Assembly (NCBI GenBank): GCA_021146305.1
Contig: GCA_021146305.1_4336.1
Reading direction: 5' to 3' (one strand)
Length of the DNA stretch: 43,091 nucleotides
Origin: a phage
Each line of letters begins with the position of its first letter. Positions within the stretch are counted from its first letter, which is position 1. The notes under the pieces are model-generated. The model was given only the letters and a program-made list of their open reading frames with translations, was not told the DNA's origin and ran no database searches. Positions 3,428 through 11,478 of the stretch are shown one piece after another. The translations under genes were made by a program, and so were the position numbers.

Positions 3428-5766
3428 TATTTAAACCCCGGCGCATTTCTTGTGGCCTTGCGGGCCTTGCTAATCTTACTGTTACTGTTCTGCAAAGAGG
3501 CAGCCACTTGCTCCTCGATGATGATACGCAAACGGCCTTCATCATCTTGCTCAGTGGATACGTTGCCGATTTGAGAACTCGTGTTGTTTACGATAGTAAC
3601 ATTAGACGGTCCGGAAGAAGACCCGTTTTGCCCCATAATTTCTTTCATCTGCTGTGCGGTGCGTACACGTGACGCACCAGCGGGCATGATAACTTCCGGT
3701 TTACCGCGTTCGGCGATGGTTGAAGCCTGCCCCGCGGATAACTGTCCGCCCTGTTCACGTGCGGACCTGATAGCGGAAATCTGCGCCATACCCGCCCCAA
3801 CGGCAGCGGCGGCAGCTACAGGAGCCAGGAATGGGCCAACTACAGGGATAGCCGCCGTGGACTTGTACGCCTCGATAGCCGCGGTGTAAGTGGCTATGGT
3901 GGCCTGTACGATAGCGAATGCCTTATACGCACCAGAGGCCTCGCCCAACGCAGACCCGATGTTTGAGGCCATGTTACCGAAGGCGGTTGCCGTTGCGTCG
4001 GCACGCTTGGTTGCGTATTGCTCATTGATGGCGTTAAGCGCGGCCTGATACTGCTTCTCACTAATAAGACCCTGCTCACGGTACTTATCGGCTACCGCCA
4101 GTTTCTGCTGTTCCTGGATGTCGAGAAGCTCAAGCTCAGTAGCGTTCTGGCCCATAATCTGAGCCATGAAGTCTTCACCTTTCTGGTTCTTTTCCTGCCG
4201 TTCTTTCTCTCGTTTAGCGAGTTCCTCCTGGCGAGCAGTGTCCGCTTCCAGCATAATCTGCGTCTTGGCGTTTTCGTACTGCTGGTCGCTAAGAAGCTGA
4301 TTGCCGTAAAACTCCTGTAGCTTGGTTAACTGCTGTTCCTGGTTGGCTTCTATTTTCTGGAATACGTCATCATTGAGATGAATTGACTGATAGTAGAAAT
4401 CCTCCGCGGCTTTCTTCTGGCGCTCGAACGCATCCGCTGCTTTCTTAGCGGCTTTTGCACCCGCGCTATCATCTTCAGATCCGCCGCCGGTACCAGTTAC
4501 CTTAAATTTACTAAGCCCTTCTTCCTTAGCGGCTTCTTTGTCGATGTCATACGCTGCGCGTTTAAGCGCGACGATATTTTGCTGAGCCTCCACCTGTTCG
4601 CGGAAACTTTTACGTGTCAGGTCCGCAACGTCGCGCTGAGTATCCAGTGCCATCCCCAGCTGGAAGTTAATATTTTTTGCTACGTCTACGGATTCCCCTG
4701 GTGTGAAGGCGGCCTTAACCAGCCGACCGGCATCCTGCGCCCCTTTAACCATATCCTCAAAGAAGCGCTCCATCGCGGTAAATTCTTCCGCGATGAAATC
4801 GAGCGCATCGGCGGCTGATTCCGCTATGGTTGTCGCCGTTTGTTCGCCGCTATCCGTGATACTTTTGCTACTAAAATCCCAAAGCTCATTTAGCCCGTTT
4901 ATCGCATCACCCACGAAACCAAATGCCGCGTCGAATGACATCTCTATTGCGCTTCCTACTTCCGACGCGATGTCACCCCACATACGCATCTCTGCGGCAA
5001 GTTCACCGGACGCAACCTGTGCGTTAAGTTCCTGGATTAAATCATCGATGTATCGGATAGGTTCGGCGAGCGCACCAACATCAAGACTGGTAGCCAGCGT
5101 CATTTTTAACTGCGACCATGAGTCGCTGGCACTGGCGATGGCCCCGTTAAGTGTGTTGGCCTGGTCCGCCATAGCCCCCGCGAAGTTTACGTTACCGATG
5201 TTGAGCAGGTATTGCTCGATGTCGGCAGCGCTCTTCTTAACTACCGTAGTAGTACCCTGGAATGTAAATTCAACATCGTTTTTGTTCTGTTTGGCCTTGA
5301 TACCAAATTCTTTAAGGCGCTCAAATTCAAAAGTACTAGCGTCTGCAACCGCCTCAATCATCTGATTCAGGTCTTTACCCATAGCAGCGGCGGTGTTTCC
5401 GTAGGAACGCAACGCTTCTTCTGACGGTGTAAGACCAAGCGCCACAAGTTTACGGAATCCCTCTACCGCCTGTTCAAGGCCATACGGAGTGTCGCGCGCG
5501 AAGTCTTGCAGGATGCTTAACGCCTGTCTTGCACCCTGCGTGCTTCCGGTTAGTGTTTTCAGGCTGGCGGACATCTTGTCCAGTTGCCGATGGGATTCTA
5601 CCAGTTCCTGTGCGGCCTTGTAAGCGGTAGCGGCGACGATGGAAGCGAGGCCCGCTACCGCAGCTCCGGCTACCTTTGCAGACTTGGAAAGGTTATCAAG
5701 ACGGTCTGATGTAGCTTTCGCGCCTTGCTCTGATACTTTTACAACTAAACTAGCTACATCAGCCAT
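3427..5766 (-). CDS. tail tape measure protein
   Basis: 779 aa, Ala/Gln/Glu-rich with extended coiled-coil character; largest gene of the tail block; preceded by two small chaperone-like ORFs and followed by minor tail genes. Confidence 0.85.
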   Translation of the reverse strand: MADVASLVVKVSEQGAKATSDRLDNLSKSAKVAGAAVAGLASIVAATAYKAAQELVESHRQLDKMSASLKTLTGSTQGARQALSILQDFARDTPYGLEQAVEGFRKLVALGLTPSEEALRSYGNTAAAMGKDLNQMIEAVADASTFEFERLKEFGIKAKQNKNDVEFTFQGTTTVVKKSAADIEQYLLNIGNVNFAGAMADQANTLNGAIASASDSWSQLKMTLATSLDVGALAEPIRYIDDLIQELNAQVASGELAAEMRMWGDIASEVGSAIEMSFDAAFGFVGDAINGLNELWDFSSKSITDSGEQTATTIAESAADALDFIAEEFTAMERFFEDMVKGAQDAGRLVKAAFTPGESVDVAKNINFQLGMALDTQRDVADLTRKSFREQVEAQQNIVALKRAAYDIDKEAAKEEGLSKFKVTGTGGGSEDDSAGAKAAKKAADAFERQKKAAEDFYYQSIHLNDDVFQKIEANQEQQLTKLQEFYGNQLLSDQQYENAKTQIMLEADTARQEELAKREKERQEKNQKGEDFMAQIMGQNATELELLDIQEQQKLAVADKYREQGLISEKQYQAALNAINEQYATKRADATATAFGNMASNIGSALGEASGAYKAFAIVQATIATYTAAIEAYKSTAAIPVVGPFLAPVAAAAAVGAGMAQISAIRSAREQGGQLSAGQASTIAERGKPEVIMPAGASRVRTAQQMKEIMGQNGSSSGPSNVTIVNNTSSQIGNVSTEQDDEGRLRIIIEEQVAASLQNSNSKISKARKATRNAPGFK

Positions 5767-6118
5767 CGTTTCTACCCTCGAAAATAGCGTCTAAGCTCAT
5801 GATGATGTCAGATTCAAACATGCCTATATTCTGGCCTGAAACGGTGCTATATGCCACTAAATCCGACCATCTTAACTGTTCACGCGGATACATCTTGATG
5901 CCATCATCGTCCACTCGGCGGGTGAATTTGATTTCCCTGTACTTCTCGAAGGTGGTTAATAGCTCAGGGGGGCATTCTGGCCCGGTGTCCTGCGTTGCTT
6001 CCGGCGCGTCTTGCATAACCCCCATAGCAATTAGCGCGGCTTTATGCCCGTCGGAGATACTGTCAAACTCCCGCCGTTTGTGGCGAGTTATGAAGTTCCA
6101 ACGGGCAAACTGGAGCAA
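5759..6118 (-). CDS. tail assembly chaperone, frameshift-extension ORF (T-like part)
   Basis: 119-aa frame whose first in-frame start is TTG; the frame stays open upstream into the 3' end of ORF 6124-6540, consistent with expression as a -1 frameshift fusion. Confidence 0.45.
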   Translation of the reverse strand: MLQFARWNFITRHKRREFDSISDGHKAALIAMGVMQDAPEATQDTGPECPPELLTTFEKYREIKFTRRVDDDGIKMYPREQLRWSDLVAYSTVSGQNIGMFESDIIMSLDAIFEGRNDG

Positions 6119-6123
6119 CGCGT

Positions 6124-6133
6124 CTACTTTTCC
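6124..6133 (-). other. candidate -1 programmed ribosomal frameshift site
   Basis: Minus-strand heptamer GGAAAAG directly followed by the TAG stop of ORF 6124-6540; the -1 frame is the open frame of 5759-6118. Non-canonical heptamer, so tentative. Confidence 0.35.
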
Positions 6134-6540
6134 TGCAATTGGTGAAGCTGTTCGTTGTGGAAAACAACAACGTGTTCAGCGAGGCGTTTATATTGTGAAA
6201 AAAGAGTATTCAGGTTCTCTTTATTAAATTCATCGTCGAGACTCCAACCGTTAACCAGTTCAAGTGCTAACTGGCGGTTAAGGTCCGTCGCGGCGTCTTC
6301 CATCTTAATGTTATATTCCGAGAAATCTTTCAGTTCCTCGCATTTATCACGAAGCGGCTTCAGTTTACCTAACGACGCGCGGTACGCCAGGGTAAATGCA
6401 CGCATGGCTTTAACCGCAACGTCTGCCTCCGGTGAAACAACGTTCAGCCACTCCCCTGAATCGGTGCCGTCTTTCAGTGGGATCGGCATACGGGCGCCTT
6501 TTTCTGCCTCAGCTTCGTAATAAAAATCAGAAAGTTTCAT
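6124..6540 (-). CDS. tail assembly chaperone (G-like)
   Basis: 138 aa acidic protein immediately upstream of the tape measure gene; canonical chaperone position. Confidence 0.5.
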   Translation of the reverse strand: MKLSDFYYEAEAEKGARMPIPLKDGTDSGEWLNVVSPEADVAVKAMRAFTLAYRASLGKLKPLRDKCEELKDFSEYNIKMEDAATDLNRQLALELVNGWSLDDEFNKENLNTLFSQYKRLAEHVVVFHNEQLHQLQEK

Positions 6541-6647
6541 TCTTTAATCCTTTGGTTAAGAGGTTACGGGTTAAGGTTAATGCGCCAGACGGGAACCACC
6601 CGCTTTTCGTGTGCGACACTAGGCGCAAAATTATTCTATCACATTAC

Positions 6648-6676
6648 TTGCACACCCCAATATAATAGTGTACTAT
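6648..6676 (+). promoter_or_regulatory. sigma70-like promoter with operator palindrome
   Basis: TTGCAC (6648-6653), 17-bp spacer, TACTAT (6671-6676); palindrome TAATAG-tgta-CTATTC (6663-6678) overlaps the -10; about 40 bp upstream of ATG 6718. Confidence 0.55.
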
Positions 6677-6717
6677 TCACTTACACCAACGATGTTATCC
6701 CAAACAGGAGCTACACC

Positions 6718-6909
6718 ATGACGGGTATTACTATGTTCTTCTTAATCATTATCGTTTTAGTTTATTTTATTCCATTTCTCGTGGCGCATATGCGCGACCA
6801 TAAAGCGAAATTAGCGATATTCATGGCTAATCTGTTTCTTGGATGGGTTCTGCTGCCGTGGGTATTTATTTTAATCTGGGCTTGCAACTCGAATGTCAAA
6901 GAGAAGTGA
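6718..6909 (+). CDS. small membrane protein
   Basis: 64 aa from ATG 6718 preceded by AGGAG; two hydrophobic helices (FFLIIIVLVYFIPFLVA and LFLGWVLLPWVFILIW). The track ORF 6580-6909 is longer, but the internal ATG has the RBS and promoter. Confidence 0.55.
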   Translation: MTGITMFFLIIIVLVYFIPFLVAHMRDHKAKLAIFMANLFLGWVLLPWVFILIWACNSNVKEK

Positions 6910-6946
6910 GCTAGTATAGGACAAATCCTAAGCACGAGGAATAAAC

Positions 6947-8077
6947 ATGGCCCGGAAGAAAATAACCGACGAACAGTTGCAGGAAGAATTGAACGCCGGT
7001 ATGAAGAATGTAGATATCGCCCGTAAATACGGCATCTCAGACCGCGTAATTCGTATCCGTAAAGCGAAGCTGGCTAAGAAAGGCGTGGGCCACGGGCGCG
7101 ACGTTAGCCACCTTGTGCCAGACGGCTACAAGATTAAAGGAACGTCGTCACTTGTGGACGAGTTCGGCAACACTAAGTTGCAATGGGTTAAGACTGATAC
7201 CGACGCCGAACGTCAGGTTGAATTGATGAAAGCCGTAATAGAGGGCATGAAGTCAGAGATTACGCCCGTTGCGCCTGTTAAAGCGGCGCGCGCCAAACGT
7301 GACGACAAGCTACTCAATCTTTACACTGTATCTGATTTCCATCTCGGTATGCTGGCATGGGCCGATGAGAGCGGCGACGACTGGGACATGAAGATTGCAG
7401 AAGACCTGTTCTCTCGGTGGTTCGACGCGGCGTTTCAGAAAGCACCGGATGCAGGAACAGGAGTTATTAACCTGCTTGGGGACTTCGCACACTTCGATAG
7501 TCTTGATGCCGTTACCCCCGAGTCGCGCCATGTATTAGATGCGGATACTCGCTATCAGAAACTGGTACGTTACATGATTCGTATGGTCCGCCGTGTTGTT
7601 GATATGGCGCTGGTTAAGCATCACACAGTAAAACTTTTAATCGTTCAAGGTAACCACGACCCTGTTGGCTCCGTATGGCTTGCCGAAATGTTCACGGTTT
7701 TATACTCAAACGACAGCCGAGTGATTGTTGATACGTCGCCGGATGTTTACAAGATGGTGCAACACGGCAAAACGACGCTGTTCTTCCATCACGGGCATAA
7801 AGCACGATTCGACGCTATCGAACCGGTTATGATTGCCAAGTTCCGTAAAGCGTTCGGCGAGAGTGTTTACAGCTACGCCCACGTAGGCCATCTGCACCAC
7901 CAGAAGATTGTAGAAAGCCGTAACATGATTGTTGAGCAACACCGCACCTTAGCGGCTAAAGACGCCTACGCCTCTCGCGGCGGATGGATGTCGGGCCGCA
8001 GTGCAAATGTAATTACTTATAGCGCCGGATATGGTGAGGTCGCACGTTTAACTATTTCACCGGAGATGCTGGGATGA
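6947..8077 (+). CDS. HTH-containing calcineurin-like metallophosphoesterase
   Basis: 376 aa; N-terminal helix-turn-helix-like segment, then ordered metallophosphoesterase motifs SDFHLG, GDFAHFD, GNHD, HHGH, GHLHH (motif I resembles SbcD/Mre11 DWHLG); AGGA RBS. Confidence 0.7.
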   Translation: MARKKITDEQLQEELNAGMKNVDIARKYGISDRVIRIRKAKLAKKGVGHGRDVSHLVPDGYKIKGTSSLVDEFGNTKLQWVKTDTDAERQVELMKAVIEGMKSEITPVAPVKAARAKRDDKLLNLYTVSDFHLGMLAWADESGDDWDMKIAEDLFSRWFDAAFQKAPDAGTGVINLLGDFAHFDSLDAVTPESRHVLDADTRYQKLVRYMIRMVRRVVDMALVKHHTVKLLIVQGNHDPVGSVWLAEMFTVLYSNDSRVIVDTSPDVYKMVQHGKTTLFFHHGHKARFDAIEPVMIAKFRKAFGESVYSYAHVGHLHHQKIVESRNMIVEQHRTLAAKDAYASRGGWMSGRSANVITYSAGYGEVARLTISPEMLG

Positions 8078-8562
8078 AAGATATTGTAATTTTCGATTTA
8101 GACGGGACATTGGCCGACGGTACCCATCGCTTACACCTGTTACCAAAAGATAACTACGGAGAAACGTGGGCGTGGAAGCCATTTAACATGGCCTGCAAAG
8201 ATGACGCTCCGATATACGACAATATCCATTTGTGTAGCGTACTGTGGCATTCCGGACTTACTATAATTATCCTTACCGGGCGAAGTGATGACGCTGAGGA
8301 GGAGACTCGCGAATGGTTACGAGAGAATAACGTTAGGTTTGACACGCTAATCATGCGCAGCAAACACGACAACAGAAAAGACATCGTAATTAAAGAAGAG
8401 GTGTTGCGTGCTTTCGGACTGGAAAGAATCTTGTGTGCGTTCGACGACTCTCCAGCGGTAATAAAGCATTTCCGTGACCTCGGCATAACCGCACACGCAG
8501 TTACCGAATACGACTGTAACGGGAACTCTACACACTTAAAACCACACGGGAGCGATAAATAA
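8074..8562 (+). CDS. HAD-superfamily phosphatase (polynucleotide 3'-phosphatase / nucleotidase-like)
   Basis: 162 aa; N-terminal FDLDGTLADG (HAD motif I, DxDGT) plus downstream RKD..KEE segment; resemblance to the T4 Pnk phosphatase domain is recalled from memory, not aligned; ATGA coupling to upstream gene. Confidence 0.6.
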   Translation: MKDIVIFDLDGTLADGTHRLHLLPKDNYGETWAWKPFNMACKDDAPIYDNIHLCSVLWHSGLTIIILTGRSDDAEEETREWLRENNVRFDTLIMRSKHDNRKDIVIKEEVLRAFGLERILCAFDDSPAVIKHFRDLGITAHAVTEYDCNGNSTHLKPHGSDK

Positions 8563-9116
8563 TGGCTAAGGTAATTATTCTTAATGGCCCTGCGGGTTGC
8601 GGGAAAGACACGCTTGCTATGGCGCTGGTAGAAATGGGCTTTGCGAAAGGAACTACCAGTTTCAAGAATCCAATGTTCAATATTGCTTTGGCAGCGTTAG
8701 GCCAGGATGCTTACCACGAATTTCTCGACGGCTACGACGACCGGGCGCGGAAAGAAAAACCCGAGGGTTTTCTTAATGGGTTGTCCCGCCGCCGGTTAAT
8801 GATTGCCATTTCTGAGCAATTCATTAAACCGGTATTCGGCGATGATTATTTCGGTAAGTATCTTGCTGAAAACTTGCCTGACGGCGACGAAGTTTTTGTA
8901 GTGTCCGATGGTGGATTCGCCAGTGAAGTTGCCCCTATCGTCGCCGCGGGGCATGACGTGCGAATCGTCCGCCTCCATCGTGACGGCTATACGTTCATCC
9001 GCGATAGCCGTGGCTATCTGTACGATGTTAGTGGTGTAAAAGATTACGACACCTACATCATACCGGGTGACGTTAAATCGAACGTTATAGACATTGCTTT
9101 AAAATTAGGTTTGTAA
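8562..9116 (+). CDS. P-loop kinase (dNMP kinase / polynucleotide kinase-like)
   Basis: 184 aa; Walker A GPAGCGKDT; overall pattern resembles phage dNMP kinase family (recalled, not aligned). Confidence 0.6.
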   Translation: MAKVIILNGPAGCGKDTLAMALVEMGFAKGTTSFKNPMFNIALAALGQDAYHEFLDGYDDRARKEKPEGFLNGLSRRRLMIAISEQFIKPVFGDDYFGKYLAENLPDGDEVFVVSDGGFASEVAPIVAAGHDVRIVRLHRDGYTFIRDSRGYLYDVSGVKDYDTYIIPGDVKSNVIDIALKLGL

Positions 9117-9146
9117 GAAAAAGGCCCCGAAAGGGGCCTTAGTTTT
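9117..9146. terminator. bidirectional intrinsic terminator
   Basis: aaGGCCCC-gaaa-GGGGCCtt hairpin (8-bp GC stem, 9121-9140) with A-run upstream and T-run downstream, between convergent genes 8562-9116 (+) and 9145-10317 (-). Confidence 0.8.
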
Positions 9147-10317
9147 ATGCGTAGGTGATACGTTGAATTACGATAGACGACTGGTACTGATTGCCGGTAG
9201 CCTGGCCTTCAATGGACTGAGTGATTGACTCAGGCCCACCAATCTCAGGTGTAACCGCCGTAAGCTCTGCACGTTTCAAACTGAAAGACATAGCCCCGTT
9301 TACCCCTGCCAGAATAGAGTTAATCTCTACCTGCTGCTCGTTGATAAACTTCTGAATCATAGCCATGTCGTACAGCTTGCCGGAGATGGAGAAGGTGTTA
9401 GCCGCGCGGCTACGTTCCACAAACGCTACGTTAGTGTTGCCGAGTTCGAACTGTGCGGACGCGCTGTTGTCGTTGGTGATGGTAAGGCTATCGCAACGCA
9501 ACGGGGTAGAACCGTCGAACACGGAAACGTCAACCGAAGAGAACGGCTCATCACCAAAAGTAACAGATGAGAAGTTGGAACCGGTCGGCGGCGTAGTGAG
9601 AATCTCCTGACTGCGACCGATGAATGGGAAGCTGCCAGTTACCATCGCGTTAACAGCCTGTTCGATGGTAAAACCAGAAACTTCCACGCCTTTGGTTAAC
9701 GTGTACGCGTCAGTACCGCCGCACTGGCCTTTGTACCAGGTAAGGATAGAGAACGTCTTACACGTGTTACCGGTTTCCAGCGTGTCGCCGGTTTTAGCCT
9801 TACTAGTTTTTGTCTCGGGGGTCAGGGTGTGTTGGATGCCCGCACCAGTAACAACCGTAGCCGTTACTGCAGTAACAATAAATGGTTTTGCGTTATCGCC
9901 TGTTAAATCGGTAAATGCAATCAGGTCGCCTATCCCAACTTCGTCAGCGATAAAACTGCCGGTAGCGCGTGTGAACGTCTTGCCTGCAGGCGCGACGGTA
10001 ATTGATAGCCCGGTCAGAGAACTACCGGATTGCCATGTAGAGCCTAAAGCACCCGCCAGCCAGTCGTCCTGGCTTTTCGAGCTAAGCTCAATAGCGTATT
10101 CTCCGCTAACCTGCTTGTTACCGGTGCGGATTGACGTAGTTTCACGGCTGCCGTCCAGTTCGTTGGAGGTCAGCGTGTCGCGGGTAATGGCAGGAACGCC
10201 ACCTGTGTTACGCAATGGCGACCAGACCGGGTTAGTCGGTGTTACGCCAGGGGTAGTTTCTGCCACATAGAATTGCGCAGTATTCGCGCCCTTAAAAGGA
10301 GTTGTAGCCATATTCAC
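9145..10317 (-). CDS. major tail protein (by synteny)
   Basis: 390 aa, Thr/Ser/Gly-rich; in transcription order lies just before the tail chaperones and tape measure; ends at a strong terminator. Confidence 0.55.
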   Translation of the reverse strand: MNMATTPFKGANTAQFYVAETTPGVTPTNPVWSPLRNTGGVPAITRDTLTSNELDGSRETTSIRTGNKQVSGEYAIELSSKSQDDWLAGALGSTWQSGSSLTGLSITVAPAGKTFTRATGSFIADEVGIGDLIAFTDLTGDNAKPFIVTAVTATVVTGAGIQHTLTPETKTSKAKTGDTLETGNTCKTFSILTWYKGQCGGTDAYTLTKGVEVSGFTIEQAVNAMVTGSFPFIGRSQEILTTPPTGSNFSSVTFGDEPFSSVDVSVFDGSTPLRCDSLTITNDNSASAQFELGNTNVAFVERSRAANTFSISGKLYDMAMIQKFINEQQVEINSILAGVNGAMSFSLKRAELTAVTPEIGGPESITQSIEGQATGNQYQSSIVIQRITYA

Positions 10318-10730
10318 AGCCTCTTGGTGAATGCAATAAAGTTAATTGACAATGGTCGTTTGGCCCATCCGTTTTCTACAATCAGCGGCCCCAGGCTAAC
10401 CGATTGAACCTCGGCGCAGATGTCGTTACGTGAAAATGACTTACCTGCTTTAAACGCCGTGTTAAGTAAGTCTGCCATTTTATTGATTGGCGCGCTACCT
10501 TTCACCGATGCGTAGTTAATGTCTATCTGATAGACACCGGCGCGTTGTTCCGTGAAGAATAAGTCAGCCTGCTCGGTATCCGCCAGCAACATGTAACTTG
10601 CCAGATACGGCGTATCTGTTGACGTCGGCGCGTCGACGTTTTCAAGCGCTACCTTGATGCCGTTGGTGGTTCCGAAGGCTACCAGCGGCACATCAAACGC
10701 TTTTGTTAAGTCCTCAAAGTAGCCCATCAT
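10314..10730 (-). CDS. tail completion / terminator-type protein (by synteny)
   Basis: 138 aa; ATGA-coupled within the neck-tail gene run. Confidence 0.35.
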   Translation of the reverse strand: MMGYFEDLTKAFDVPLVAFGTTNGIKVALENVDAPTSTDTPYLASYMLLADTEQADLFFTEQRAGVYQIDINYASVKGSAPINKMADLLNTAFKAGKSFSRNDICAEVQSVSLGPLIVENGWAKRPLSINFIAFTKRL

Positions 10731-11122
10731 CTCACCTTGCTAGCTTCTTCGTTAATGAGTTGCTGGAAGCGGGACACGTTAGTCCTGACGAATCCTTGCG
10801 GGGCCTGTTGCGACCAGCCATACTCCAGCCGTTGTGCATACGGCAGGTTATTTGTCAGCGTGAACTCATGCCAGTCGGTGGCTTTCAGCACGAAACTTGT
10901 AACGTTTCCGGTTGCTGTGTTTCCTGATTTATCCGTAGCATCCGTAATCCCGGAAGCAGGAGTACCGCCAGATGCCATCCAGTTCATGCGAAACCGACCA
11001 GTATCTACCGGACTCGCCTTTATAATAGCGGAAAACAGCTTGATAGACACCTGACGCATCACCTTCTCAGGGTTCTTCTTCGCCTTTTCCACGAACTTAG
11101 AGACGTCCAGCGCGAAACTCAT
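10727..11122 (-). CDS. head-tail joining protein (by synteny)
   Basis: 131 aa; translationally coupled with neighbours. Confidence 0.35.
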   Translation of the reverse strand: MSFALDVSKFVEKAKKNPEKVMRQVSIKLFSAIIKASPVDTGRFRMNWMASGGTPASGITDATDKSGNTATGNVTSFVLKATDWHEFTLTNNLPYAQRLEYGWSQQAPQGFVRTNVSRFQQLINEEASKVR

Positions 11123-11478
11123 TTTCTCACCTGAATAAAGTAGGCCACAACATCATCGTTAACCACCTTTTTCTCAATGGCTACGACGGACCATTGCTCG
11201 CCGCCGAATTGCACTTTGTCTTCCATCTTAGGAACGACGCTGTAATCGGCTTTAACAATCATGTCACCAGCCTGAATCGTCGTACCGTTCACCAGACCCG
11301 CATTAACAGGAACCGGAACGGCCTTCAACGGCAACACTTCATCCGCAGACCAGACGTACTCACCGAGAACTTCATCCCACACTTTCGAGCCAGCGCGAAT
11401 CAGAGATACCGTGCTACCGAATTTGGTTAACAGGCGTGTACCCACGCCTTGCATACGTTTACTGAAAGCTGTGCTCAT
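11119..11478 (-). CDS. head-tail joining protein (by synteny)
   Basis: Start chosen at internal ATG 11476-11478, which forms an ATGA overlap with the stop of 11475-12092; the track ORF extends to 11532. Confidence 0.35.
   Translation of the reverse strand: MSTAFSKRMQGVGTRLLTKFGSTVSLIRAGSKVWDEVLGEYVWSADEVLPLKAVPVPVNAGLVNGTTIQAGDMIVKADYSVVPKMEDKVQFGGEQWSVVAIEKKVVNDDVVAYFIQVRK

Follow-up and report, generated by a model that had tools for sequence, protein, structure and literature searches.

The phage DNA analysed here, a contig of 43,091 nucleotides (GCA_021146305.1_4336.1 of GenBank assembly GCA_021146305.1; hereafter the window), carries an enzymatic island set antisense within its tail genes. 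Four plus-strand genes separate the tail assembly chaperone from the major tail gene (Table 1). In order, they encode a small superinfection immunity protein, a metallophosphoesterase (MPE) with a helix-turn-helix (HTH)-like N-terminus, a HAD-superfamily phosphatase and a P-loop kinase. To judge from sequence comparison and structural models, the kinase is more likely to act on deoxynucleoside monophosphates (dNMPs) than on polynucleotide 5'-OH ends. Our tentative reading of the island, to which we give a probability of roughly 0.42, is that it supports the salvage of DNA breakdown products through a nuclease, a phosphatase that cleans up its products, and a dNMP kinase.

The sequence itself is not new, as the cassette is already deposited and annotated in dozens of GenBank genomes. 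In a megablast search, positions 6500-9200 matched 318 phage records. Escherichia phage vB_EcoS-22664BS2 (MZ234010), a Kagunavirus, is 99.9% identical over the full length, and K1G-type and further Kagunavirus genomes reach 86-94% identity. A complete annotated relative, vB_Eco_K-02 (PQ436005), displays the standard Kagunavirus layout, with the same four plus-strand genes flanked by those for the tail assembly chaperone and the tail tube. GenBank labels the cassette as 'DNA repair exonuclease / polynucleotide kinase / dNMP kinase / superinfection immunity'. Three points go beyond these labels: the name 'polynucleotide kinase' sits on a phosphatase-only protein, the product of the true kinase gene is dNMP-kinase-like, and the island is modular.

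The original prediction, made from the sequence of the window, had described three co-oriented and coupled genes lying in opposite orientation between the tail chaperones and the major tail gene. The list of open reading frames (ORFs) and the flanking minus-strand genes agree with this layout. The MPE, HAD and kinase genes are translationally coupled: the MPE stop codon and the HAD start codon share ATGA (8074-8077), and the HAD stop and kinase start share TAATG (8560-8564). Every motif quoted in that prediction was found at its residues in the ORFs, and the three superfamilies that it named (MPE, HAD phosphatase and P-loop kinase) are borne out by motifs, profiles and folds. Profile searches and structure prediction, which it had proposed as checks, were both run and are reported below for each enzyme. 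Its view of the island as accessory and non-structural also stands.

In an AlphaFold2 (AF2) model with a predicted local distance difference test (pLDDT) score of 90, the MPE comprises a three-helix HTH-like domain (residues ~8-44), a linker of a beta-hairpin and a helix (61-104), and a calcineurin-like binuclear core (119-376). The core carries the motifs SDFHLG (129-134), GDFAHFD (178-184), GNHD (235-238), HHGH (281-284) and GHLHH (314-318). Residues D130, H132, D179, N236, H237, H282 and H317 are invariant among 50 homologues of 32-50% identity. Because the metal-binding residues are all retained in these homologues, the MPE should be an active enzyme. It matches phrog_704 ('DNA repair exonuclease') at 6e-162 and remains under the Pfam gathering thresholds for Metallophos_2 (22.0 bits, cut-off 27) and Metallophos (17.2 bits, cut-off 21.5). 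Divergence puts the family out of reach of the Pfam models, and superfamily membership is founded on motifs and fold.

Foldseek comparison of the MPE model with the PDB gave 122 matches at E<=1e-3, and the best 50 of these all have the MPE fold. Mre11 (4o43, 1.8e-8) ranks first, followed by the DP1 proofreading exonuclease of PolD and, further down, by Rv0805, GpdQ, purple acid phosphatases and YfcE, with template-modelling (TM) scores of ~0.4. Sequence searches of the PDB, with the single protein and with a profile, returned no significant solved structure; their weak matches to GerE and FixJ cover the HTH only. Together with the source names 'winged HTH' and 'sigma-70 region 4', these matches point weakly to an HTH. 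One source names a close homologue 'Nuclease MPE'.

The MPE family is widespread. In a full scan of 1.84 billion cluster representatives, 4526 relatives pass E<=1e-3, of which 1111 also pass E<=1e-30; most have ~380-400 residues. The family counts more than 4500 clusters at 50% identity. By tblastn, 2013 of 50,697 phage records contain the MPE and 1533 contain the kinase. No Rad50/SbcC-type ATPase was found among the neighbouring genes (Imm, HAD and kinase) or among those annotated in PQ436005. Homology of the MPE to the T5 protein A1 was considered and dropped, as hhalign finds nothing past the GNHD motif; comparison with this T5 host-DNA nuclease is hence one of analogy and not of homology.

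The HAD protein carries FDLDGTLADG at residues 7-16, with D8, D10 and T12 forming the DxDxT signature. It passes the Pfam model PF25109 (HAD_PNKP) with 73 bits (3.3e-20; cut-off 27.6) and also matches phrog_415, and its best PDB sequence matches are Pnkp1 (4xrp, 4e-6) and T4 Pnk (2e-3). With a 15-sequence profile, hhalign aligns it to residues 160-298 of T4 PseT over 128 columns (97.8%, E 1.2e-12, 31% identity). In this alignment, D8, D10, R19, R70, D103, D124 and D125 face D165, D167, R176, R213, D254, D277 and D278 of T4 Pnkp, which we take from the mutagenesis literature to be its essential phosphatase residues. The match to T4 PseT is stronger than that to T5 Dmp (88.8% probability, E 2.5e-6, 25% identity). 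The segment that follows motif I is the substrate cap in HAD enzymes. Here the island protein has a Dmp-like length and shares the pattern HR..P..N.AC..D with Dmp, and T4 needs a gap. One HAD homologue also has a weak precomputed match to PF26880 (Phage_T5_dNMPase).

The phosphomonoesterase chemistry of the HAD protein is secure, and the candidate substrates are a 3'-phosphate end or a mononucleotide. Because the protein is genuinely PNKP-type in the alignment with T4 PseT, 3'-phosphatase activity on DNA ends is possible. Within phrog_505, the T4-type Pnkp family, the HAD protein matches the phosphatase part and the island kinase leaves the kinase part unmatched.

The kinase has the P-loop GPAGCGKDT at residues 9-17, where G12, G14, K15 and D16 are invariant in 38 homologues; T4 gp1 and T5 Dnk have SGKDT at this site. 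It matches phrog_139 ('deoxynucleoside monophosphate kinase') at 5.3e-44, and phrog_31701 is its sole other PHROG match. Single-sequence and profile searches of the PDB retrieved just P-loop matches to AAA+ proteins. The AF2 model (pLDDT 94) ranks the T4 gp1 dNMP kinase (1DEK) first in the PDB, with E 1.4e-5 and a TM score of 0.64, followed by archaeal adenylate kinases and phosphomevalonate kinase. Named BFVD matches are nearly all dNMP or phosphomevalonate kinases and include Dnk of the T5-like phage AAS21. No polynucleotide kinase, T4 Pnk included, occurs among the best 50 fold matches in either PDB or BFVD.

In profile alignments, the kinase aligns with T5 Dnk at 94.4% probability, though over just 46 columns; these extend past the P-loop and cover GKDT and SF-x-x-P-x-[FY]-x-x-A. 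With T4 PseT, alignment is confined to 25 P-loop columns, and with T4 gp1 the probability is 25.7%. A collinear, weak second segment, D116-x-x-F119-x-x-E122, parallels DVRFPNE in T5 Dnk and DTRQDHE in T4 gp1. After strand beta-2, K35 is invariant, at a position that we take to hold the catalytic Asp (Asp35) in Pnk-type hydroxyl kinases. A 518-residue protein of Escherichia phage JEP1 (BFVD A0A7S6HV70), whose name refers to a homing endonuclease domain of the DOD type, fits the kinase fold over ~186 columns, which suggests a kinase gene with a homing-endonuclease or intein insertion.

Gene neighbourhoods place the kinase family among genes of nucleotide metabolism and replication. The sample consisted of 80 IMG/VR loci fetched through the kinase, plus contigs from an exact look-up, and was queried with the window proteins. 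Loci whose kinase is <60% identical to that of the window (~69 loci) were treated as divergent, and for these neighbouring ORFs were clustered and the cluster representatives confirmed by Pfam. The most frequent neighbour is a 5'-3' exonuclease (33 loci), with 28 of 33 gene copies upstream of the kinase. Endonuclease VII follows in 15 loci, an upstream ATP-dependent DNA ligase in 14, a dUTPase immediately downstream in 11, a T7-type RNA polymerase in 10 and a second MPE family (phrog_221) in nine. On other contigs, the kinase adjoins dCMP deaminase and DUF4406 genes, and on one contig ThyX lies ~5 kb away. When 86 loci were searched by tblastn for dCMP deaminase, ThyX, DUF4406 and ligase, few further cases emerged; the clustering of neighbouring ORFs told more.

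Two observations link the family further to deoxynucleotides. In one locus (L002:5549-6594), a kinase homologue overlaps by 7 nt a gene for DUF4406, which is nucleoside 2-deoxyribosyltransferase-like. Likewise, a 297-residue protein named nucleoside 2-deoxyribosyltransferase (BFVD A0A6J5RPH7) matches the kinase fold over its full length and is read as a domain fusion. Both add to the evidence that the kinase family acts on deoxynucleotides. The phrog_221 MPE, found in L058:6828-7832 and eight further loci, has 334 residues, also with an extra N-terminal region, and lies upstream of kinase homologues. Hence, the association of an MPE with this kinase arose with two distinct MPE families.

The island is modular, built of a promoter, an exclusion gene, the MPE and a variable tail, with the HAD-kinase pair as a unit of its own. 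All 16 Kagunavirus-like IMG/VR loci keep MPE, HAD and kinase in this order, and Imm was detected in 11 of them. The trio recurs at 40-50% identity in nine loci of other phage groups, including T1-like genomes, where it ends the replication module after helicase, VRR_NUC and Dam genes and precedes the lysis genes. HAD and kinase occur without the MPE in 12 loci and the kinase alone in 47; the two are adjacent or near-adjacent in 21 of the ~69 divergent loci. In three loci (L048, L053 and L057), the pair lies directly upstream of a T7-type single-subunit RNA polymerase, an early-gene position; in L048, HAD occupies ~7508-7951, the kinase 8001-8468 and the polymerase 8755-11205. The HAD proteins of these three loci do not have the Arg equivalent to T4 R213, as TGAGE replaces TGRSD.

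In two genomes of the sister genus Jerseyvirus (NC_073196 and OM339548; L093:3254-5646 and L094), the island sits at the same position with Imm and an MPE of 85% and 55% identity. The HAD and kinase positions hold instead a 76-residue ORF (phrog_2452) and an Ant/Roi-like anti-repressor (phrog_63). The 76-residue ORF was checked as a possible HAD or kinase remnant, and this origin was rejected.

Conservation within Kagunaviruses is uneven. Between the window and loci L007-L022, protein identity is 94-98% for the MPE, 83-100% for HAD, 82-99% for the kinase and 71-98% for Imm. GC content is 38.5% in imm, 46% in the HAD gene, 48% in the kinase gene and 51% in the MPE gene, against 50.5% for the window, a faint hint of mosaicism at most. 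Because conservation is uneven and GC content differs, these values suggest that the MPE gene is the older resident and the remaining island genes are more mobile.

A mechanism that would join these elements can be outlined. The analysis establishes the gene structure, the family assignments, the intact catalytic residues, the modular build and the genomic contexts, whereas we infer what each enzyme acts on, that the MPE is a nuclease, when the island is expressed and that host DNA is involved. An accessory cassette, inserted antisense in the tail-gene region of Guernseyvirinae, would be transcribed by host RNA polymerase. The MPE may act as a metal-dependent DNA nuclease or phosphodiesterase whose N-terminal domain guides it to DNA. 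The route would begin with the cutting and digestion of DNA, presumably that of the host chromosome, after which the HAD phosphatase would strip blocking 3'-phosphates or trim unwanted mononucleotides. The kinase would then convert 5'-dNMPs into the diphosphates (dNDPs), from which host Ndk would make the triphosphates (dNTPs) for phage replication. The related complete genome PQ436005 has no annotated ribonucleotide reductase, thymidylate synthase, dUTPase or ligase. A role in the nucleotide pool fits better than the healing of nucleic-acid ends, because the kinase family sits among nucleotide-metabolism and replication genes and because the first three of these enzymes are missing from the PQ436005 annotation.

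Published work provides a setting for such a role. T1-like and other small siphophages degrade host DNA and reuse its nucleotides through genes that have not been identified (PMC11447400). A study of Drexlerviridae notes the trio arrangement and proposes that two kinases, as extensions of the replication module, enhance nucleotide supply (PMC13164509, 2026). In T5, the metallophosphatase A1 is both required for the degradation of host DNA and sufficient for it, with the DNA-binding A2 and the HAD dNMPase Dmp as partners (bioRxiv 10.64898/2026.04.02.716235).

Several considerations weigh against nucleotide salvage. No experiment exists on any member of the MPE, HAD and kinase families, our literature search found no functional study of these genes in Guernseyvirinae, and it returned no record of host DNA degradation by a Kagunavirus. 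The phosphatase is the main difficulty: overall, the HAD protein resembles T5 Dmp (E 2.5e-6) less than it does the 3'-phosphatase of T4 Pnkp (E 1e-12), the coupling of a phosphatase to a kinase follows the logic of Pnkp exactly, and a 5'-nucleotidase would counteract a dNMP kinase translated from the same mRNA. The kinase resembles characterised dNMP kinases weakly (20% identity and TM 0.64 to 1DEK; 26% for T4 gp1 in hhalign). The Arg of the D-x-R motif (DTR in T4, DVR in T5) is absent from its family, which has an invariant D116-G117-G118 (DGGF) in its place. The MPE, for its part, has no detectable relation to T5 A1 beyond GNHD, and its fold matches include the non-nucleases Rv0805, GpdQ and purple acid phosphatase at TM ~0.4. 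Nor is it tied to the HAD-kinase pair, given the Jerseyvirus MPE genes without either partner and the differing record counts (2013 against 1533).

The T4 3'-phosphatase has historically been linked to DNA metabolism. Removal of 3'-phosphates from nuclease products would reconcile the HAD protein with salvage, and some MPE nucleases leave such ends, as reported for the P. putida MPE (PMC7826289).

A split polynucleotide kinase-phosphatase is an unlikely alternative, and it corresponds to the end-healing role that the original prediction had set beside nucleotide-pool manipulation. Here, DNA or RNA breaks with 3'-phosphate and 5'-OH ends would be healed by HAD as 3'-phosphatase and the kinase as 5'-kinase and sealed by a host ligase (LigA, RtcB or other); the MPE might contribute a 2',3'-cyclic phosphodiesterase or trim ends. 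The HAD protein speaks for this role: it passes the HAD_PNKP threshold, its best PDB matches are the RNA-repair enzyme Pnkp1 and T4 Pnk, and it keeps counterparts of all the T4 residues that we presume essential. Eukaryotic PNKP has the phosphatase before the kinase, as does the island, where the two genes are coupled, and their proximity in 21 of the ~69 divergent loci agrees. Some MPE nucleases, that of P. putida among them, are also reported to produce 3'-phosphate ends (PMC7826289).

The kinase, however, argues against end-healing in several respects: the kinase part of phrog_505, the best 50 fold matches, the 25-column alignment with T4 PseT, and the invariant K35 where Pnk-type enzymes presumably have their catalytic Asp. 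Kinase homologues are also mostly without a HAD partner (47 loci). A ligase, whose absence nearby the original prediction had noted, is likewise missing: none of the 87 annotated PQ436005 genes is an RNA or DNA ligase, with the count resting on that relative's annotation and not on a gene-by-gene profile scan of the window. End-healing is thus disfavoured because the kinase fails the Pnk comparisons, no ligase is annotated and the MPE is not tied to the other two enzymes. Of the two roles first envisaged, nucleotide-pool manipulation has gained from the dNMP-type kinase and its contexts, and end-healing has lost ground. No tRNA genes were found in the window, and hence there is no sign of a tRNA-replacement strategy that would hint at anticodon-nuclease pressure.

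We consider it equally improbable that the MPE is a Mre11/SbcD-like nuclease of replication, recombination or concatemer processing that works without Rad50, with HAD and kinase as unrelated add-ons in an island of co-transcribed but independent genes. In favour of such a nuclease, the MPE is the most conserved island protein in Kagunaviruses (94-98%, against 82-99% for the kinase), persists at 85% in some Jerseyviruses whose downstream genes have been swapped, and turns up in 2013 phage records. By fold, it comes closest to Mre11 and the proofreading exonuclease of PolD. In T1-like genomes it closes the replication and recombination module after helicase, VRR_NUC and Dam, and it served as the end landmark for the Drexlerviridae loci extracted in PMC13164509. 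Yet no Rad50/SbcC-like ATPase adjoins it or is annotated in PQ436005. Moreover, the island has its own sigma-70-like promoter and lies with an immunity gene in the structural region, not among replication genes. The order MPE-HAD-kinase is also kept across groups just 40-50% identical, suggesting more than coincidence.

Least probable among the rivals is counter-defence, in which the enzymes would remove or re-phosphorylate nucleotides on which host immunity relies. They could hydrolyse nucleotide signals of cyclic or modified form, or dNMPs that signal danger (m6-dAMP, for instance), or rebuild dNDP and dNTP pools against dNTP-depleting systems (PUA-Cal-HAD, dCTP deaminase, dGTPase). In favour, an accessory island with its own promoter and a swappable superinfection-exclusion slot is typical of conflict loci, the cyclic-nucleotide phosphodiesterase Rv0805 is among the MPE fold matches, and in T7-like loci the HAD-kinase pair lies among early genes just upstream of the RNA polymerase, but the proteins resemble no known anti-defence protein, PADLOC gave zero matches, and the HTH of the MPE points to DNA and not to small molecules. 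In the BASEL study, Kagunaviruses proved highly sensitive to restriction-modification and variably so to Old, with no special robustness noted. Analogy is the sole basis of this reading, and it comes from a calcineurin-like and HAD host defence that depletes dNTPs to dNMPs and is triggered by m6-dAMP from chromosome degradation (bioRxiv 10.64898/2026.01.15.699771); those very molecules would be the substrates of a dNMP kinase and of a dNMP phosphatase. On balance, the evidence neither backs nor refutes the anti-defence role that the original prediction called conceivable.

A more radical extension, for which we see a slim chance, joins this idea to salvage. The HAD-kinase pair, with or without the MPE, would control which deoxynucleotides survive host-chromosome breakdown, destroying modified or signalling mononucleotides such as m6-dAMP and re-phosphorylating normal dNMPs. 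If so, the danger signal would be hidden and dNTP-depleting immunity resisted. A less radical reading would make the pair a polynucleotide kinase-phosphatase of two polypeptides, with a fold of the dNMP-kinase type recruited to serve as 5'-kinase.

The remaining features of the island concern its control and its first gene (Table 1). Conservation of the promoter, the leader and the first gene position (slot 1) was assessed in an alignment of 18 Kagunavirus loci. The candidate promoter block admits two readings: TTGCAC (6648-6653) and TACTAT (6671-6676) as sigma-70 elements with a 17-nt spacer, or an overlapping -10 element TATAAT (6661-6666) with a poorly conserved -35. A promoter scan called ATCACA-17-TATAAT at 6638-6666, whose ATCACA -35 varies among relatives. 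Promoter function of the block is inferred from this conservation. The original prediction had assigned an operator as well as a promoter to the island; the conserved block supports the promoter, and the operator falls away. Its palindrome TAGTGTACTA was rejected, as relatives have TAGCGTACTA and TAGGGTACTA, which are no longer palindromic. The 4+4 palindrome TAGT-GT-ACTA is broken in most relatives, and a repeat search reported no inverted repeat in 6640-6700.

Table 1. Position and basis of the island genes, their control elements and the flanking tail genes in the window
Feature	Coordinates	Strand	Basis
Tail assembly chaperone, C-terminal half	5759-6118	-	phrog_15027 positions 143-259
Tail assembly chaperone, N-terminal half	6124-6540	-	phrog_15027 positions 1-138
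Candidate extended -10, TGnTAGAAT	6633-6641	-	13 loci covering the site, sole variable position n
Candidate island promoter block	6647-6680	+	conserved in 18/18 aligned Kagunavirus loci, also where the first gene differs
T4 Imm-type superinfection immunity small membrane protein, 63 aa	6718-6909	+	Pfam PF14373, phrog_1039
Leader with ribosome-binding site GAGGA before the MPE gene, 31 nt	6916-6946	+	nearly invariant in 18 loci with any slot 1 gene
HTH-metallophosphoesterase, 376 aa	6947-8077	+	phrog_704, MPE motifs, AF2 fold
HAD-superfamily phosphatase, PNKP/Dmp clade, 162 aa	8074-8562	+	PF25109, phrog_415, hhalign
P-loop kinase, dNMP-kinase-like (GKD) group, 184 aa	8562-9116	+	phrog_139, AF2 fold, hhalign
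Bidirectional intrinsic terminator, AAGGCCCC-GAAA-GGGGCCTT	9121-9140	both	8-bp GC-rich hairpin, U-tracts on both strands; scan calls both strands
Tail tube-type (major tail) protein	9145-10317	-	phrog_290

On the minus strand, the candidate extended -10 reads ATTCTA[TGAC]CA on the plus strand of the 13 covering loci; a simple promoter scan gave no call there. Its conservation makes it look like an element that restarts transcription of the tail chaperone and tape-measure genes past the island. The strong bidirectional terminator noted in the original prediction is common to the island and the major tail gene, with folding energies of -19.9 and -15.4 kcal/mol (z -5.3 and -3.6) that 0 of 200 shuffles equalled. 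Antisense island and terminator divide the tail genes into two transcription units, and the minus-strand element would probably restart the chaperone and tape-measure unit. The two chaperone ORFs, as halves of phrog_15027, fit the expected G/T pair joined by a programmed frameshift.

Slot 1 holds the small membrane protein gene foreseen in the original prediction. Its product matches Imm_superinfect (PF14373) over profile positions 1-42 of 42 (9.5e-14, 51.5 bits; cut-off 27.9) and phrog_1039 ('immunity to superinfection') at 1.6e-23. A longer ORF from 6580 was rejected as the true gene, being unconserved in relatives. The slot, compared with the same position in L013, L014, L017, L019 and L020, is a swap site that holds either of two Imm variants with differing N-terminal halves or, in five of 16 Kagunavirus loci, an unrelated 108-residue signal-peptide protein (phrog_14165). 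Promoter block and leader stay constant while the content of the slot changes.

In small siphophages, the identity of the genes that break down and reuse host DNA is a real question, touched only indirectly here. The HTH-MPE family, present in ~2000 sequenced phages, is a concrete, testable candidate for their host-chromosome nuclease, with the HAD-kinase pair as candidate for the nucleotide steps that follow. The names that annotation pipelines give to the three families are inconsistent and include 'DNA repair exonuclease', 'polynucleotide kinase', 'ATPase' and 'replication factor C'. Since Kagunaviruses are small, easy to engineer and in use as therapeutic candidates, it would be of practical value to know whether the cassette is dispensable or host-dependent.

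Comparison with known systems defines the position of the island. T4 Imm is, like the slot 1 protein, a small two-helix membrane protein above the PF14373 threshold, but the island version is short and stand-alone, and related phages swap it for a variant or an unrelated secreted protein. With T4 PseT/Pnkp, the island HAD shares DxDxT and the residues that we take to be essential. The island differs from it in having two polypeptides that meet at TAATG (8560-8564), with the phosphatase first, and a kinase that is not Pnk-like; its HAD has a longer, Dmp-like cap segment, and the PQ436005 annotation includes no partner RNA ligase. T4 gp1 (1DEK) and animal-type phosphomevalonate kinase resemble the island kinase in the P-loop GKD(T) and in D-x-x-x-x-x-E after strand 3. 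T4 gp1 is nonetheless longer (241 residues against 184), and the Arg of its D-x-R motif is replaced in the island kinase. Mre11/SbcD, PolD DP1 and the P. putida MPE share with the island MPE the binuclear metallophosphoesterase fold and all five motifs, whereas the island enzyme stands without a Rad50/SbcC partner and has a different N-terminal module of HTH and beta-hairpin.

The T5 set A1, A2, Dmp and Dnk comprises the same enzyme classes, and an MPE with a DNA-binding function parallels A1 plus A2. In the island, however, the HTH is fused to the MPE, which has no detectable sequence relation to A1, and phosphatase and kinase are translated together; T5 has its genes scattered and separated in time. 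T5 also discards host nucleotides, whereas the island phage is without de novo synthesis genes. In Drexlerviridae, the run 'DNA repair exonuclease - polynucleotide kinase - dNMP kinase' is the same trio, placed in the replication module instead of among tail genes, and without Imm. Closest of all is the Kagunavirus cassette of MZ234010, K1G and PQ436005, which has the same four genes in the same order and position and from which the island differs in nothing substantive.

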